Part shown: piece by piece, positions 1-5,277 of the stretch
How positions within the stretch are numbered: position 1 is the stretch's first letter
How the letters are laid out: each line of letters begins with the position of its first letter
Assembly: GCA_022844165.1 (NCBI GenBank)
Contig: JALHMH010000046.1
Coordinates: 1 to 30,913, forward strand
Length of the DNA: 30,913 bases
DNA from: Lysobacterales bacterium
GTDB taxonomy: Bacteria; Pseudomonadota; Gammaproteobacteria; Xanthomonadales; SZUA-5
Reading direction: 5' to 3'
The notes under the pieces: generated by a model
Databases searched by the model: none
Told to the model about the DNA's origin: nothing
Seen by the model: the letters and a program-made list of their open reading frames with translations, nothing else
Program-made: the position numbers and the translations under genes

Positions 1-111
1 GCTCATCGAGGCCAGCGGCAGCTTTGCTTCTCAACCACCACCAACCGAGCCATCTGACATCCCGATTGTTCATCTTAATAATTGACGAAAAACGTTGGAA
101 AAAGGTTGACA
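1..111 (+). mobile_element. Probable right end of an insertion sequence (TGT/CA-ended, IS21-like or similar), with the 3' end of an incoming ORF (2..85)
   Basis: AT-rich stretch ~65-111 in GC-rich DNA, ending ...GGTTGACA (TGTCAACC on the minus strand), with an internal 11-bp near-repeat CAACCTTTTTC/CAACGTTTTTC. A + strand frame (LIEASGSFASQPPPTEPSDIPIVHLNN*) stops at 85. The neighbouring TPR gene runs into this sequence. No transposase motif is visible in the window. Confidence 0.4.
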
Positions 112-1893
112 CATTCCGAACCAGGAGCGCACCTTGCTTTCGCTCAGGGTGCTGGCCAACGGACCCACGTAAGGCAGGTAACGTTCGAATATTGCGTTGT
201 CCAGCAAAGATGCGGGCAAAGCGCTGCGGAGCTTGATGGTCTGGTGCGCTTGCCGAATCTGGCCGAGCGCGATCTGCAGATCAGACTTGGCTTTCAACGC
301 CAAATCGCGTTGCTGATTGTCCAGTTTGCGCGCAAGCAGCTTATCAATATCGGCTAACGCAGCTTCGCCTTCGCCCAGATCATGTCGCAGCCGGGCACGC
401 TGCAGGTCTGCCGAAATGAGATCGGGGCGCACCGCTTGGGCCTGCCCAAGATAATCCGCCGCTTGCGTATGACCACCGCGTACGCTTTCGATAGATGCCA
501 ACGCTCGCAGCGTCGAATAGTCTGTCGGATCGAGGCGCAATGCTTGTTCCGCGAGTTGCAGGGCATCGTCGCTACGCCGCTGGCGCAGGAACATCGTGGC
601 GCGCGACGACATCTCAGAGGCGGATCCCGATTCCAGCGTCAGCGTTTTGATCGCATCCATCGCCTCCGCATTGTTCGGATCTTCGCTTAGTCGCAGTTCG
701 GCGATCGCCAATCGCGGCGCGCGATCCCATGGTGCAGTGCGCGCCCAGGTATCAAGTACTTGACGCTCACCGGTCTTGTCGTCGCGCGCCTGTGCAATGA
801 AACGTTGGATCGTGAAACGGAAATTGACTGGTAGCACATCGAGATGCGGCAACATGGTTTCCAATGCTGGCAATCCCTCCAGCATCGTGTTGTTGGGATT
901 GACGGTCACACTGAGGTATTTGGCGATCAAGAAGTTAGGATCGAGCGACTGTGCCTTTTCGAACGCCTGTGTGGCGCCAACACGATCCTTGCCCAGGATG
1001 ACGCGCACGTTGCCCTCGACGTAAGACTTCGCCGCCTCAAGCGACTCCGTGGTCACGCTCCGAATATCCGGATCGTTGGCTTGCGCCAAGGCCTTTGGCG
1101 GCGCCAGTTCCGTGCGGACGAGCGCTGCCAGTTGGTTGATCGCGTCCCATTCGTCGCGCGCGCTCAGTTCGAAAGGCCCGAGCGTGGCATCGGGCCGAAG
1201 TCGGTAGATGTCGACAATCATCCTGAACATCGGTCCGTCGCGAACGATGCGCCCGCTCACGATCGCACGAAACCCGAGCGCAACCGCAGCGCGACGGCGA
1301 ACGGCGGCGGGTGCGGCCACAATTTCCTTCACGCCATTGCGCTCCAGGAATGCCATCAGCGCCGGTGTCGTCGTCGAAAGCACCGAGCGCGCCGCAAAAC
1401 GCCCATCGAAAAAGAGATCGTACTCGGCCAGCAAGGGCAATCCAAATTGCATCCAGGCGTCGTTCGGCGCGCCGCCTGCGTCGAAGGCATAGATGAGCAC
1501 GTCGCTCACCTGCTCTTCGCGCCGCGCCTTTGGTACTGAGGGGGTTGCAGGCGTCTCGGCCGCAGCTGAGGAGGTCGGTTGCTCCGGCTGTAGCGCGAAG
1601 CGCCAGCCGACGCTGCCCGCGCACAGCAGAGCAAACAGCGCAATGAGCGCACGATCCAATCCGGAGAAGATCGCTGGGCCCGGCGCCCCGATTCGCCAAA
1701 TGAGCAGAATCGCCAGTGGTGCACCGCTGACCATTGCCGTGAGCGACAAATCGACCGATCGATCCGGCCAGCCATAGCGCTCGACCATAAAGCTCAAAAA
1801 CTGCACCAGCGCCCACATCAGACCGAAATAGCCCGCCAGCAGCGGCAGTACACGGCGTTCCTTGATCTTCGCCCAGAAGCTTTGTTCGCGCAC
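70..1893 (-). CDS. Membrane-anchored TPR-repeat protein (three N-terminal TM helices, TolB-N-like domain, TPR repeats); possibly 3'-truncated
   Basis: GTG start. N-terminal SFWAKIKERRVLPLLAGY followed by three hydrophobic segments and a Pro/Ala linker. TPR-like repeats (AFEKAQSLDPNF, AEQALRLDPTD, QAQAVRPDL). The last ~13 codons lie in the AT-rich IS-like end. Confidence 0.75.
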   Translation of the reverse strand: MREQSFWAKIKERRVLPLLAGYFGLMWALVQFLSFMVERYGWPDRSVDLSLTAMVSGAPLAILLIWRIGAPGPAIFSGLDRALIALFALLCAGSVGWRFALQPEQPTSSAAAETPATPSVPKARREEQVSDVLIYAFDAGGAPNDAWMQFGLPLLAEYDLFFDGRFAARSVLSTTTPALMAFLERNGVKEIVAAPAAVRRRAAVALGFRAIVSGRIVRDGPMFRMIVDIYRLRPDATLGPFELSARDEWDAINQLAALVRTELAPPKALAQANDPDIRSVTTESLEAAKSYVEGNVRVILGKDRVGATQAFEKAQSLDPNFLIAKYLSVTVNPNNTMLEGLPALETMLPHLDVLPVNFRFTIQRFIAQARDDKTGERQVLDTWARTAPWDRAPRLAIAELRLSEDPNNAEAMDAIKTLTLESGSASEMSSRATMFLRQRRSDDALQLAEQALRLDPTDYSTLRALASIESVRGGHTQAADYLGQAQAVRPDLISADLQRARLRHDLGEGEAALADIDKLLARKLDNQQRDLALKAKSDLQIALGQIRQAHQTIKLRSALPASLLDNAIFERYLPYVGPLASTLSESKVRSWFGMCQPFSNVFRQLLR

Positions 1894-1948
1894 GCGGTCA
1901 TGTTTCCTGGCTTGTTGGTGTCGAGTTTAGCGAGAAATCCGCGCCCAA

Positions 1949-1972
1949 GCGCCGGGCCCCATTGCCCGGCGC
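1949..1972. other. GC-rich stem-loop just downstream of the slipin stop codon (possible 3'-stabilising hairpin or weak terminator)
   Basis: GCGCCGGGC-CCCATT-GCCCGGCGC, perfect 9-bp stem, no clear U-tract. Confidence 0.45.
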
Positions 1973-1980
1973 ATTCCAAC

Positions 1981-3111
1981 TCACTTCGGCAGCAACTTCA
2001 TGACGCTCTCGAGACCGCCCAACACGTTGAGTTGCCCAACGTTGCCGGTGATCTTCTCCAGCGCTTCCAGTTCCTTCAACCGCAGCAACACCGGACTCTC
2101 TTCCAGCAGCTTTGCGGTGTTCAGCAAGCTGCGCGTGGCGGCGGTTTCCTCGCGACGCTTGATCAAGTTGGCCTGCGCCAGCTTCTCGGCCTCGACCACC
2201 TGGTTCAACAGCGCCTTCATCTCGCCCGGCAAGATCAGGTCCTTGACGCCTACGCTCACCAGTTGCACGCCCACATCATCGAGCTTGGCTCGCGCGTACT
2301 CGGCGATCTCGACGTCGACCACGCCCTTGTCTTGCAGCAACGCATCCAAAGACCGCGCTCCCAACGCCTGACGCAAGCCGAACTGCAGCTCGCGATAGGC
2401 ATACGCCTTGACGTCTGCAACCCGCGACTTCAGCTTCACGACATCGGTGACGCGATACACAGCGCACACGTTGGCGCGGATGCTGACCTTGTCGCGCGTC
2501 AGGATGTCCTGGCCGCTGACATCCAACTCGATCAGTCGCATATCCACGGTCTCAACGCGCAGGCTGCGACCGAAACGCCAGAAGCCGTAGACCCCGGACG
2601 ACAAGGTTTGCGTGAGCGCACCGTCGATCCACACCAAGCCTGTCTGTTCGGCACCGACCTCGACCAACTGCACGGCCTGCGCTACGTCCTTCGCCAATTC
2701 CGTCGAACCCGGCGCACGCAACGCGGTCAGCGTTCGCGCCCCGACCGCAGCGCCCGCCTTCAGGTCGATCCGCTCGACGCTGATCGGCTCGGAGGCGCGC
2801 CAGTAAAACTGCCGCGAGCCCGGCGCCAAAACGCGCACGAGTTTGCCGCGCTCACGCACCAGCCCAACCTCATCTGCGGCCAAATCGACCTCCACGATCT
2901 CGGCCTCGAGCGCGCCGCGGTGCAAGCGAAACAGCGCCTCGATGCCGGCCACGTTGACCTGCGGTCGATCGAGACGATCGGTCAAGAATTGCGGCGCGCG
3001 GCCCAAGCCATAGCGAAGGTGACGTCCCGGCGCGAGCACACGCTGAAAGCGTCCATCGTGCAACTCGATTGCGCGCTCGTTATCAGCCACCTGGGTTCGA
3101 GTGAAGTACAT
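1981..3111 (-). CDS. Slipin-family SPFH/Band 7 domain protein
   Basis: ATG with AAGGAG RBS. Three N-terminal repeats of the type ER.L...DG....L.PG. SPFH core (VSGQDILTRDKVSIRAN, VKDLILPGEMK). C-terminal AQANLIKRREETAATRSLLNTAKLLEESPVLLRLKELEALEKI typical of slipins. Confidence 0.9.
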   Translation of the reverse strand: MYFTRTQVADNERAIELHDGRFQRVLAPGRHLRYGLGRAPQFLTDRLDRPQVNVAGIEALFRLHRGALEAEIVEVDLAADEVGLVRERGKLVRVLAPGSRQFYWRASEPISVERIDLKAGAAVGARTLTALRAPGSTELAKDVAQAVQLVEVGAEQTGLVWIDGALTQTLSSGVYGFWRFGRSLRVETVDMRLIELDVSGQDILTRDKVSIRANVCAVYRVTDVVKLKSRVADVKAYAYRELQFGLRQALGARSLDALLQDKGVVDVEIAEYARAKLDDVGVQLVSVGVKDLILPGEMKALLNQVVEAEKLAQANLIKRREETAATRSLLNTAKLLEESPVLLRLKELEALEKITGNVGQLNVLGGLESVMKLLPK

Positions 3112-3449
3112 GGCACATCTCCTTGTTGTTTTTCATATCGTTGGATAACGCCCAGAGCCCCACGCCGCCGGCGTGGGCGATGGGGCGAGTGACTTGCGAT
3201 CGGCGGCATGACCATCGGCCTGTGCATCGCAAGCGATGCGCTTCGTACCGATGGCGTATCCACTACATTCGCCACCCGCTTGACCACCGCGCAGAACGCG
3301 TCTAACGCTGCGTATTGGACTGACGCGTATCCGCCCTGCCCGGCTCGGATACCGCCAGCACCCAACACGCCGGGGCCCTTGGCGCCGCGTCTCGCGACGC
3401 GGATGCCGGGAACCGCCCGGCCGGTCTTACTTCCATGCGGCGTGACAGG

Positions 3450-3521
3450 CCGTTGCGACGGGAGTCGAACCCGCTACCGAGTCATTAACAGTGACTTGCT
3501 CTACCCATGAGCTACGCATGT
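3450..3521 (-). tRNA. tRNA-Asn(GTT)-like element with a degenerate acceptor stem (pseudo-tRNA or tRNA mimic)
   Basis: Minus strand: acaTGCG TA GCTC-ATGGGTA-GAGC A AGTCA-CTGTTAA-TGACT CGGTA GCGGG-TTCGACT-CCCGT CGCAacg G CCT. D, anticodon and T arms are canonical, anticodon GTT at 3487-3489, discriminator G. Only 4 of 7 acceptor pairs form, and CCT replaces CCA. Confidence 0.75.
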
Positions 3522-3572
3522 TGGGCTGGGTGGAGTCGAACCACCGAAGGCCCCCGATTGGGCTCCAGTCCA
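3522..3572 (-). ncRNA. Mini-tRNA-like element lacking an anticodon arm
   Basis: Minus strand: TGGACTG GA GCCC-AATCGG-GGGC CTTC GGTGG-TTCGACT-CCACC CAGCCCA. Acceptor-like stem with 6 of 7 pairs, 4-bp D-like arm, perfect T arm, and only a 4-nt linker in place of the anticodon arm. Confidence 0.55.
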
Positions 3573-3789
3573 CGGTCACCGAACATCGTGTTTCCCGGTA
3601 CGTTGAACGGCAAAGCCATCAACGCCAGACCGGCATGGTTTCCCATAAACCGGTTATCGCTAGAAAAACACGCCGTTTCGATGCGCTGTTTGAATCGGCC
3701 GTTAATCCGATTCGAAATTCGTATATTCCAGGCAATAATCGTCCGTCGTCGAAAACGATTTTTTCGACGTTGAACTCAGGGGGTGCTGG

Positions 3790-3828
3790 AAAATAAAAAA
3801 CCCCCGGTGCAGCAGCACCGAGGGCTTT
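3790..3828 (-). terminator. Intrinsic terminator (attenuator position)
   Basis: Minus strand AAAGCCCTCGGTGC-TGCT-GCACCGGGGG-TTTTTTATTTT: GC-rich stem followed by a long U-tract, 50 nt after the leader ORF stop. Confidence 0.85.
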
Positions 3829-3878
3829 AGAGAATCAAAGCATACTCAGGGCTGCCAACGCAGCCCTGACAAGCAAGG

Positions 3879-3941
3879 CTACGCGCGACGGCGCATTGGA
3901 TTGAATCCATGCGGTCGACAGGGAATACCGTGCTTGATCAT
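3879..3941 (-). CDS. Putative 20-aa leader (attenuator) peptide MIKHGIPCRPHGFNPMRRRA
   Basis: Perfect GGAGG RBS (3949-3953) 7 nt before the ATG, placed between a promoter and a terminator. Too short for the ORF track. Confidence 0.65.
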   Translation of the reverse strand: MIKHGIPCRPHGFNPMRRRA

Positions 3942-3968
3942 GCAAGAACCTCCGAATGAGTGCCGCGT

Positions 3969-3996
3969 ATTATTCTCAACTCTATTCTCTTGTCAA
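3969..3996 (-). promoter_or_regulatory. Sigma70-type promoter for the leader/ncRNA/slipin unit
   Basis: TTGACA (3996-3991), 16-nt spacer, AATAAT (3974-3969) in an AT-rich patch, just upstream of the GGAGG RBS. Confidence 0.65.
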
Positions 3997-4167
3997 GTGG
4001 CCATTAATGACCACTCGTCGGATTATTGAACCGACGGGGTTCATTGCCAGAAGGCTGAAACCACCGCAGTGCCACAGAACCACCGCGCTCCACGCACTAC
4101 TGGACACAACTAACTCTGACAGGGCGCGGCTCCAGTAGACTTCAGGCAAGTTACCAGGAGAACCGCC

Positions 4168-5277
4168 ATGAAAGTTCGAGCCGCCGTCGCCTATCGCGCA
4201 GGAGCGCCGTTGACCGTTGAAACCGTCGATCTCGATGGCCCGCGCGCCGGGGAAGTGCTGGTTGACATTCGCGCCACGGGCATCTGTCATACCGATGCGT
4301 ACACACTGTCTGGCGCCGATGCCGAAGGCAAGTTTCCGGCAATACTCGGCCATGAAGGCGCAGGTGTCGTGGTGGATGTCGGCGCGGGTGTGAAGAGCGT
4401 GCGCAAGGGCGATCACGTGATTCCGCTGTACACACCAGAGTGCCGTGAATGCGAGTACTGCTTGAATCCCAAGACCAATCTCTGCCAGGCGATTCGCAGC
4501 ACGCAAGGTCAGGGGCTGATGCCGGATGGCACCAGCCGATTTTCGATTGGCGGCGAACCGATCTATCACTACATGGGAACGTCGACTTTCGCCAACTACA
4601 TCGTGCTGCCGGAAATTGCGGTGGCGAAAATTCGCGAAGACGCGCCGTTCGACAAGGTGTGCTACATCGGCTGCGGCGTGACCACGGGGATCGGTGCCGT
4701 GATCTACACGGCCAAAGTCGAGCCTGGTTCGCGCGTGGTTGTGTTCGGCCTCGGCGGTATCGGCTTGAACGTAATTCAAGGCGCACGGATGGTCGGCGCG
4801 GCGCAGATCGTTGGTGTCGATATCAATCCCGCGAAGCGCGCCCTCGCCGAAAAATTCGGCATGACGGATTTCGTGAACCCTAAAGAAGTCGACGGCGATC
4901 TCGTCGCGTATTTGGTCTCGCTGACCAAAGGTGGCGCCGACTACAGCTTCGAGTGCGTCGGCAACCCCACCTTGATGCGTCAGGCGCTCGAGTGTTGCCA
5001 CAAAGGCTGGGGAACATCCGTGATCATCGGCGTCGCCGAGTCCGGCAAAGAGATTTCGACGCGCCCGTTCCAACTGGTCACCGGACGCAACTGGCGCGGC
5101 AGCGCCTTCGGTGGCGCGCGTGGACGCACCGATGTGCCGAAGATCGTCGATTGGTATATGGAAGGCCGCATTGATATCGACAGCCTGATCACGCATACGA
5201 TGCCGCTGGAACGCATCAACGATGGCTTTGAGCTGATGCATCGCGGCGAGTCCATTCGCAGCGTGGTTCTTTTTTGA
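4168..5277 (+). CDS. frmA: S-(hydroxymethyl)glutathione dehydrogenase / class III alcohol dehydrogenase
   Basis: GICHTDAYTLSGAD, GHEGAG, CRECEYC...NLC Zn cluster, GLGGIG, ISTRPFQLVTGR; AGGAG RBS. Confidence 0.97.
   Translation: MKVRAAVAYRAGAPLTVETVDLDGPRAGEVLVDIRATGICHTDAYTLSGADAEGKFPAILGHEGAGVVVDVGAGVKSVRKGDHVIPLYTPECRECEYCLNPKTNLCQAIRSTQGQGLMPDGTSRFSIGGEPIYHYMGTSTFANYIVLPEIAVAKIREDAPFDKVCYIGCGVTTGIGAVIYTAKVEPGSRVVVFGLGGIGLNVIQGARMVGAAQIVGVDINPAKRALAEKFGMTDFVNPKEVDGDLVAYLVSLTKGGADYSFECVGNPTLMRQALECCHKGWGTSVIIGVAESGKEISTRPFQLVTGRNWRGSAFGGARGRTDVPKIVDWYMEGRIDIDSLITHTMPLERINDGFELMHRGESIRSVVLF

Follow-up and report, generated by a model that had tools for sequence, protein, structure and literature searches.

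A slipin gene in a Lysobacterales bacterium lies behind a conserved leader RNA with two tRNA-like modules and a candidate translation-sensing attenuator

In a contig from a Lysobacterales bacterium (GenBank assembly GCA_022844165.1, contig JALHMH010000046.1, positions 1 to 30,913; this whole stretch of 30,913 nucleotides [nt] is called the window here), an initial annotation made from the sequence alone had listed a promoter, a leader open reading frame (ORF), a terminator, two tRNA-like modules, and a slipin gene. It proposed that they form an undescribed, translation-stress-induced unit without the usual Rtc genes. This locus raises the question of whether the parts belong together and, if so, what controls them and what joins a tRNA-like RNA to an SPFH-domain protein. 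We found all of the listed parts on the minus strand in the order given, and this arrangement is shared by two families of the order, as expected of one conserved unit. We think it probable that the locus is a tRNA-mimic/slipin module with its RNA-ligase genes elsewhere, gated by a translation-sensing attenuator that would release tRNA-mimic RNA and slipin mRNA. From promoter to slipin gene, the features are as follows.

3969..3996, minus strand: sigma70-like promoter, -35 TTGACA at 3996-3991, 16-nt spacer, -10 AATAAT at 3974-3969
3879..3941, minus strand: small leader ORF of 20 codons plus TAG, with a GGAGG Shine-Dalgarno sequence at 3953-3949
3874..3882, minus strand: "region 0," GUAGCCUUG, stop codon included, able to pair with the 5' arm of the next hairpin
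3846..3869, minus strand: hairpin 1:2, 10 bp, TCAGGGCTGC-GTTG-GCAGCCCTGA
3787..3828, minus strand: intrinsic terminator (stem and T-run called at 3828-3797), 14-bp stem with 8 G-C pairs
3690..3786, minus strand: linker with two hairpins, GTCGAAAA/TTTTCGAC and GAATCGG/CCGATTC
3576..3689, minus strand: junction motif, an outer helix around AGCGAUA, a hairpin, CUGG, a hairpin, and GUACC
3524..3560, minus strand: tRNA-like module 1, T-arm at 3545-3529 (GGUGG-UUCGACU-CCACC) and short closing stem, D-arm absent
3454..3518, minus strand: tRNA-like module 2, D-arm, anticodon-like arm, T-arm at 3474-3458, and 4-bp acceptor stem
3438..3452, minus strand: conserved CUGUCAC-loop hairpin, with the same loop in many aligned loci (ACGACCTGTCACGTCGT type)
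3135..3437, minus strand: 3' structured domain, closing helix GGGCCCC (3378-3372) with GGGGCUC (3161-3155)
1981..3111, minus strand: slipin/SPFH gene, 376 amino acids (aa), Shine-Dalgarno sequence AAGGAG at 3124-3119

We compared the locus with 80 loci of slipin homologues (42 to 91% identity) from named genomes, which are mostly from Lysobacterales and other Gammaproteobacteria and include two contigs labelled Chloroflexota and Verrucomicrobia, and with 7 loci from relatives. The sister genome is designated G001, and G016 and G003 are other genomes of the window's family. T-loop motifs lie upstream on the slipin strand in 84 of the 86 loci listed, and on the opposite strand in 15 of them. Two T-loops 40 to 110 nt apart are found in 62 of the 80 loci and at least one T-loop in another 15; in the remaining 3, the sequence upstream is truncated or was mishandled. 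R1, a covariance model built on the junction motif, matches 71 of the 80 loci, always on the slipin strand, and these include Competibacter and other lineages outside the set from which the model was built. On the window, R1 matches positions 3689-3576 with 58.2 bits (E = 9.4e-13), the sole match in the genome, and a class-wide sample of 150 other families gave no match. Across 149 genomes of the order, R1 occurs in 34, slipin in 49, and both in 31; the three genomes with R1 only comprise two weak matches and one match near a contig end.

The position of the RNA-ligase gene varies among these loci. It stands beside slipin in 47 of the 80 (45 downstream and 2 upstream), and in none of the 16 loci of the window's family within the ~1.5 kb downstream that was covered. 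Fifteen of these 16 loci retain the upstream T-loop motifs, and the sixteenth is covered by only 556 nt upstream. Judged from sequence comparison, the RNA has slipin, not the ligase, as its constant partner. We also found that the slipin gene is under purifying selection relative to that of the sister genome (dN/dS of 0.066 at a dS of 0.75, with ~47% of synonymous sites differing), while the leader as a whole is 79% identical. Since the slipin is constrained and the leader is better conserved than neighboring synonymous sites, the unit is being maintained rather than decaying.

The tRNA resemblance is clearest in module 2, where Rfam reports a tRNA match at 3518-3454, 343 nt upstream of slipin, with 47.4 bits against a gathering score of 29. 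The match spans only model positions 4 to 67, so the acceptor stem is limited to 4 bp. The anticodon-like loop lies at 3491-3485, with the triplet GUU at 3489-3487, and the T-arm of module 1 lies 71 nt upstream of that of module 2. In relatives, each module usually has a D-arm and a T-arm; a short stem-tetraloop replaces the anticodon arm in module 1, and module 2 has a 5-bp anticodon-like stem with a loop of mostly 7 bases. The D-arm of module 1 has been lost in the window and in the sister genome. In an alignment of 53 sequences of this double cloverleaf, 94.7% of cells are paired, compared to 34 to 46% when the 3' partners are slid by 1 to 3 columns, and 28 of the 37 pairs carry changes on both sides. 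Among 46 seven-base anticodon-like loops there are 23 different triplets, with U at position 2 in 36 and A at position 6 in 43. Such a variable loop is compatible with a decoy and equally with an absence of constraint.

We rejected a genuine tRNA gene (RF00005) on the basis of the 4-bp acceptor stem, the unconserved anticodon triplet, and ARAGORN, which reported no tRNA genes in the window and rejected both modules. The other Rfam matches in the window, to His_leader (26.9 bits; gathering score, 49), NsiR1 (23.1 bits), YrlA (20.4 bits; gathering score, 69), and tmRNA (13.5 bits), are below threshold, and we counted them as partial resemblances of the terminator or T-arm and not as family membership; the YrlA and tmRNA matches belong to module 1. 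Rfam searches of 11 homologous loci found only tRNA, and no family in Rfam 15 besides tRNA covers the leader RNA. A separate arrangement was seen in the contig labelled Verrucomicrobia (L107:400-5600), where ~30 tRNA genes scored by Rfam stand directly before two tRNA-like modules and slipin; this array recalls the stress-induced tRNA operon described for Anabaena in the passages we drew on from PMC10272220.

Between the terminator and the slipin gene, ~685 nt are noncoding, with no credible ORF, and alignments of this region show paired domains on both sides of the tRNA-like tandem. The 5' domain, from the terminator to module 1, shares long-range helices and a multi-helix junction in 30 Lysobacteraceae-type loci, with 91.0% of cells paired versus 31 to 43% in slid controls and changes on both sides in 47 of 77 pairs. 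The 3' domain, from module 2 to the slipin ribosome-binding site, is ~240 nt long with an 11-bp closing helix in 28 Lysobacteraceae-type loci, with 88.4% paired versus 37 to 51% and both sides changed in 42 of 49 pairs. For the tandem, the 5' domain, and the 3' domain, the observed pairing was reached in none of 500 shuffles each. Together with the R1 matches, these alignments bear out the expectation that the RNA upstream of slipin homologues would be conserved, with compensatory changes.

The elements in the window are reduced or diverged forms of these Lysobacteraceae-type domains. Its junction motif aligns with the Lysobacteraceae-type junction, and its linker (3690..3786) looks like a reduced 5' domain, to which it is putatively homologous; the sister genome has a GAATCGAC/GTCGATTC hairpin at the matching place. 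In the 3' domain of the window, the closing helix encloses a GCCGGGCAGGGCGG-loop hairpin and a long helix, a topology common to four relatives in a 5-sequence alignment of the window's lineage. The same topology in these 5 sequences and a weak BLAST similarity putatively link this domain to the Lysobacteraceae-type one. The spacer that separates module 2 from slipin has no consistent ORF, and in the low-G+C loci L037 and L103 it has no ORF of at least 30 codons, so we rejected a hidden small protein there. Three loci (L114, L115, and L116, from G024, G008, and G020) have this domain enlarged to 529 to 764 nt by 1 to 3 copies of a ~110-nt repeat (gtagagcggagcttgctccgctgc...), which looks like an inserted REP-like repeat.

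What precedes this RNA is an arrangement typical of attenuators. The promoter at 3996..3969 has 11 of 12 consensus matches, and a scan of positions 1800-4300 gave 3 promoter-like sites where 0.8 are expected. Both hexamers are kept in the sister genome, and the alignment with it breaks down further upstream. Analogous promoters are found in G016 and G003 (TTGAC(A/T)...TAATGC) and in Lysobacteraceae-type loci (cTTGCA-N17-TAACGT). The initial annotation had reported no convincing -24/-12 promoter, and this holds: we found no convincing TGGCAC-N5-TTGCW sequence at the slipin locus. The nearest sigma54 match, at 4059-4074, deviates at 2 positions of the -12 box and is not kept in the sister genome, such matches occur at chance frequency (20 versus 19.9 expected), and the strict pattern is absent upstream of the tRNA-like modules in all 69 loci searched.

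The small ORF would encode the peptide MIKHGIPCRPHGFNPMRRRA, followed by its stop, and GGAGG lies 7 nt before its start. Its ATG, stop, and frame are kept in the sister genome, with one in-frame 3-nt insertion or deletion. In 40 of 40 leaders examined, an ORF of at least 20 codons has its stop 49 to 60 nt before the terminator, and a homologous terminator (GCCCTCGG...CCGGGGG-T-run) is present in 40 leaders. The 37 Lysobacteraceae-type leaders have, in order, cTTGCA-N17-TAACGT, an ATG ~55 nt further on, an ORF of ~33 to 49 codons with a TGA stop in 31, GGAGAUCGG-loop-CCGAUCUCC, CGAGG, GCCCUCGGG...CCCGGGGGC, and a U-run, while the window's family has this layout in a different sequence, with 29- and 27-codon ORFs that end in TAG-CC in G016 and G003. 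The small ORF has no run of regulatory codons. A weak peptide motif, ..IAK.hALRPxGhG.., recurs in the small ORFs across families with diverged DNA (for example, SIALRP in G016, HALRPAGHG in L069, and PCRPHG in the window); it may act as a signal in the nascent chain or be due to chance.

The leaders of both families allow four pairings that exclude one another. Region 0, which lies across the stop codon or immediately after it, can pair with region 1, the hairpin's 5' arm; regions 1 and 2 form the hairpin; region 2 and the next bases are complementary to region 3, the terminator's 5' arm, and in the window also to the terminator loop, which gives an antiterminator option; and regions 3 and 4 form the terminator. 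Variants of region 1 are accompanied by matching changes in regions 0 and 2, as in L055, where GGAGGUC occurs with GACCU, and further covarying sets are the L042 variant and the TAGCC type of the window's family. When the nascent RNA of the window was folded, the 0:1 hairpin had the lowest energy at lengths of 34 to 42 nt, and at 90 nt, just before the 3' arm of the terminator is made, the minimum-energy fold combines 0:1 with 2:3. In an automated and crude pairing test on 45 leaders, antiterminator pairing was found in the free state in 24, and hairpin 1:2 was found in 40 once region 0 was masked. The promoter, the short ORF with its ribosome-binding site, the alternative hairpins, and the terminator that define an attenuator are thus all present, in order.

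From this arrangement we infer the direction of the switch, in that a ribosome at the stop codon would cover region 0 and not region 1. Transcription would start at the sigma70-type promoter, and a ribosome-dependent attenuator would then gate the leader. Under normal translation of the small ORF, the ribosome at the stop would cover region 0, hairpin 1:2 and the terminator would form, and transcription would stop at ~3790. If the small ORF were translated slowly or not at all, 0:1 would pair, region 2 would take up the terminator's 5' arm, and polymerase would read through, so that the RNA would supply both structured tRNA-mimic RNA and slipin mRNA. The tRNA-like modules would be parts of a conserved, folded leader RNA of ~0.85 kb and not free-standing genes, and their tRNA-like portion is probably retained as a stable RNA. 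This logic fits the induction by translation stress that had been proposed for the locus. Read-through under failing translation also fits circumstantially with two reports, since rtcB of Acinetobacter baumannii is induced 252-fold by tigecycline in the data excerpted from PMC7652931, and a slipin gene and rtcB of Anabaena are de-repressed jointly with a translation-stress regulon according to the relevant passages of PMC10272220.

The claim that the locus lacks the usual Rtc genes stands for the window, in which no Rtc gene is encoded, but not for the genome. A genome search found a sole RtcB gene, together with rtcA, beside ferrochelatase on contig C15, and RtcR on contig C39, while a search for TROVE/Ro60 (PF05731) in this genome, which is 99.97% complete, gave no match. 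RtcR is likewise rarely a neighbor of slipin, being found beside it in 1 of 12 Pfam-annotated loci (L088). On C15, a sigma54-like TGGCAC-N5-TTGA lies ~240 nt upstream of rtcB-rtcA (L031:1160-1415), and a stretch like a tRNA D-arm, GGTAGCTCAGTGGTAGAGC, lies ~70 nt before the rtcB start, where Rfam gave no match at E values up to 1. RtcB-like fragments that look like remnants of a lost rtcB directly follow slipin in two loci (66 aa at L109:7294-7491 and two tiny pieces at L064:7182-7282). In Escherichia coli (L130, CP061233.1), a 38%-identical slipin is followed by a gene with a nucleotidyltransferase domain, between a DUF3811 gene and lysC, and query coverage reaches at least 80% in 1,629 of 5,426 complete E. 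coli genomes. The 530-nt spacer upstream of this slipin gave no tRNA-like RNA in Rfam at E values up to 0.1, so the E. coli locus is no stand-in for the unit described here.

Sequence from the locus was found in a metatranscriptome run (X5) from a study separate from those of the DNA runs that contain the locus (X1 and X2). A 214-nt contig in X5 corresponds to positions 3430-3643 with 1 mismatch and reaches from within the junction across both tRNA-like modules to the CUGUCAC hairpin. We take it as no more than a hint at a stable RNA form of the tRNA-like part. Nothing else near-identical to positions 1900-4200 was found in X5, where uncovered parts are uninformative.

The slipin itself has a Pfam Band_7 domain (PF01145, 99.3 bits), the only Pfam family found at E values up to 0.01, and the vault repeat was not detected. 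An AlphaFold2 model built with 32 sequences (mean pLDDT, 81.4) has beta-rich segments at residues 3-46, 72-116, and 147-190, an SPFH domain, and a long helix. An N-terminal helix of the membrane-anchor type is not predicted; no transmembrane predictor was run. Structural matches of the model are stomatin (Z of 17), HflK/C, prohibitin, and erlin chains, in the range of Z 14 to 17.5, and major vault protein (MVP) follows at Z 10 to 11.7, with two entries that align residues 4-336 to MVP residues 272-688. In the proposed mechanism, a soluble slipin with beta repeats, SPFH domain, and long helix is probably an oligomeric cage or scaffold, which may bind the leader RNA and would probably act with it in tRNA or ribosome damage control.

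The vault shares with the predicted slipin the N-terminal beta repeats, the SPFH "shoulder," and the long helix, and both would be soluble proteins linked to a small structured RNA. The model aligns to MVP 272-688 at Z 10.3 to 11.3; where repeats and long helices are compared, a score near 11 may stem from a shared layout. The slipin differs in size, with 376 aa compared to ~800 to 900 aa for MVP, and in its lack of a vault repeat detectable by Pfam. We treat the vault resemblance of the model as a lead, not a classification. A bolder version of the proposal, in which one large RNA of a new class (~0.85 to 1.2 kb), with the tRNA mimics embedded in it, and a vault-like SPFH cage form a ribonucleoprotein that is switched on by the attenuator when translation fails and acts without a co-encoded RtcB, for example by decoying or capturing tRNA-targeting nucleases or by holding damaged tRNAs, seems to us speculative and on present evidence unlikely.

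The closest known counterpart is a system of tRNA-like RNA, Band-7 protein, and RtcB that was predicted and its RNA named b7a-tRNA by Burroughs and Aravind (2016), as cited in a later preprint (bioRxiv 10.1101/312249), the available part of which describes it as not yet validated by experiment in 2018. The core pairing had therefore already been predicted, and the locus cannot be called an undescribed unit in that respect. A tRNA-like RNA adjoins a Band-7/SPFH gene on the same strand here, and the protein is of the Band-7/SPFH type, as in the predicted system; in contrast, RtcB is not adjacent and rtcB lies on another contig. The locus also differs from the 2016 description, which we compared second-hand, in that two modules stand in tandem within a ~0.85-kb leader that has three other covarying domains, with a promoter, a small ORF, and an attenuator ahead of them. 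In the literature searched, no other paper named b7a-tRNA, the 2016 prediction being known to us through the excerpted preprint only, and searches for RtcB with slipin, RtcB with band-7 and tRNA-like RNA, and RtcB with Xanthomonas found nothing further of relevance. The tRNA-mimic/slipin pairing fits this second-hand prediction and is itself not new; what appears to be new within the literature searched is the attenuator, how large the RNA is and how its domains are built, and the linkage centered on slipin. In our account, the module would be the predicted b7a-tRNA and Band-7 protein of an RtcB-type RNA repair system with the ligase genes encoded elsewhere.

Other systems resemble parts of the locus. 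In the rsr-yrlBA-rtcBA operon of Salmonella, the Y RNAs YrlA and YrlB accompany Ro60 (Rsr). Like YrlA, the RNA described here mimics tRNA and goes with an RNA-repair module, and its T-arm-then-D-arm order gives a partial match to model positions 29-81; it is separated from that family by its score of 20.4 bits against a gathering score of 69, by a genome without TROVE/Ro60, and by its SPFH partner. The attenuators of the trp and his type and the ribosome-stalling leaders of antibiotic-resistance genes are controlled through leader peptides. The locus shares with the trp/his attenuators the promoter, short ORF, mutually exclusive hairpins, and terminator, the last of which accounts for the weak His_leader match, but it lacks a run of regulatory codons and its controlled output would be an RNA-repair RNA and protein, not biosynthesis. 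In trp super-attenuation the outcome is opposite to that at this locus, where the extra region 0 would give read-through without translation. The sigma54-dependent, RtcR-controlled rtcBA operons of E. coli and Salmonella belong to the same functional neighborhood, and the genome studied here has its own RtcR and an rtcB-rtcA pair behind TGGCAC-N5-TTGA; the slipin locus is unlike them in its sigma70-like promoter, in the lack of a detectable -24/-12 element, and in having RtcR on another contig.

Several of our results count against the proposed attenuator and structured leader. The consensus structures, computed with RNAalifold, come from the same alignments that were used for the pair counts, and the related sequences in those counts are non-independent observations. 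Folding energies compared to shuffled controls were not significant (z of -0.43 for 3428-3690 and -1.72 for 3112-3450), so support for a structured RNA is comparative and not thermodynamic. The equilibrium fold of the window leader is the 1:2 plus 3:4 terminator form, at -56.8 kcal/mol, and antitermination would therefore have to be kinetic. In the 45-leader test, both 0:1 and 2:3 pairings were found in only 18, and a strict masked-state criterion, in which all 2:3 pairing is lost, was satisfied by only 6, because CGAGG can pair with the terminator arm despite hairpin 1:2. The attenuator is almost invariant among Lysobacteraceae-type loci, which leaves little covariation to test. The small-ORF peptides are poorly conserved, and most Lysobacteraceae-type small ORFs lack a clear Shine-Dalgarno sequence. 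We looked for a coding signature and found none, since differences by codon position (0.55, 0.60, and 0.53) have no third-position excess, and chance ORFs of this length are readily found in G+C-rich DNA. The RNA evidence is one assembled contig, from which strand, ends, and level cannot be read and which library DNA could have produced.

These points have to be set against other explanations. The locus might consist of three separate units, namely, a small ORF with its terminator, a tRNA-like small RNA with its own promoter in the manner of Y RNAs, and a slipin gene with its own promoter or a long leader, with no attenuation. The strength of the terminator, which is also the equilibrium fold, speaks for this, as do the metatranscriptome contig, which reaches neither the small ORF nor slipin, and the A+T-rich stretch at 3740-3700, which could hold a promoter. 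Yet no conserved -35/-10 pair lies between the terminator and the structured RNA, where the stretch varies in sequence and length, and the fixed distance from stop codon to terminator, with the nested complementarities 0:1, 1:2, 2:3, and 3:4, occurs in two families of divergent sequence. On balance, we consider separate units rather improbable. We give still less credence to a cis-acting RNA-damage sensor, in which cleavage of the tRNA-like modules by anticodon nucleases, or binding of a factor to them, would alter the slipin mRNA (elsewhere also the rtcB mRNA) in place of RtcR. Such a sensor would suit the rarity of RtcR beside slipin, the lack of a sigma54 promoter at the window locus, and an anticodon-like stem that covaries around a loop free to vary, and the signal for RtcR in Salmonella is tRNA fragments according to excerpts of PMC7790460 and PMC10159003. 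It is opposed by the slipin Shine-Dalgarno sequence, which lies in an A-rich stretch and does not look sequestered, and by the lack of any sign of cleavage, and it leaves the small ORF and terminator unexplained.

The remaining explanation is that the modules are decayed tRNA genes or integration-site remnants, left without function after deletion of an rtc operon. The lost D-arm of module 1 in the window and sister genome, the rejection of both modules by ARAGORN, and the rtcB fragments after slipin in L109 and L064 can be read in this way. Against it, position, strand, and structure are kept in 62 to 71 of the 80 loci with compensatory changes, all 16 loci of the window's family keep slipin without a downstream rtcB and 15 keep the T-loop motifs, and the identity of the leader to that of the sister genome and the dN/dS of slipin are those of a maintained locus. 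Decay, which the initial annotation had named as an outcome fatal to its proposal, was thus checked and not found; the conservation data already largely refute it, and we regard it as very improbable. The tRNA-mimic/slipin module behind a translation-sensing attenuator remains the reading that we prefer.

The neighborhood of the unit is bounded on the side away from slipin by a divergent gene.

4168-5277, plus strand: zinc-dehydrogenase gene

Directly downstream of slipin lies a gene for a 607-aa TPR protein (window positions 70-1893, minus strand). The gene after slipin in a Marinicella locus (L081:7251-8852) also encodes a TPR protein, there with a Trans_reg_C domain, which may be a coincidence. 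Matches to the slipin protein among plasmid records are large replicons, and a search of a phage collection with this protein gave no match.

As of the 2018 source, in the part available to us, RtcB systems that include Band-7 and tRNA-like RNA partners were only predicted, and how they could be switched without RtcR was not known (bioRxiv 10.1101/312249). R1 is a specific and testable model of the junction, and cultivable hosts carry the unit. If our reading is correct, a whole order of Gammaproteobacteria would control an RNA-repair module by a translation-sensing leader-ORF attenuator, and b7a-tRNA would be only the most recognizable piece of a far larger folded RNA for which Rfam 15 has no family. 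Since the constant partner of this RNA is slipin rather than the ligase, an SPFH-RNA particle would then be pointed to as the functional core.

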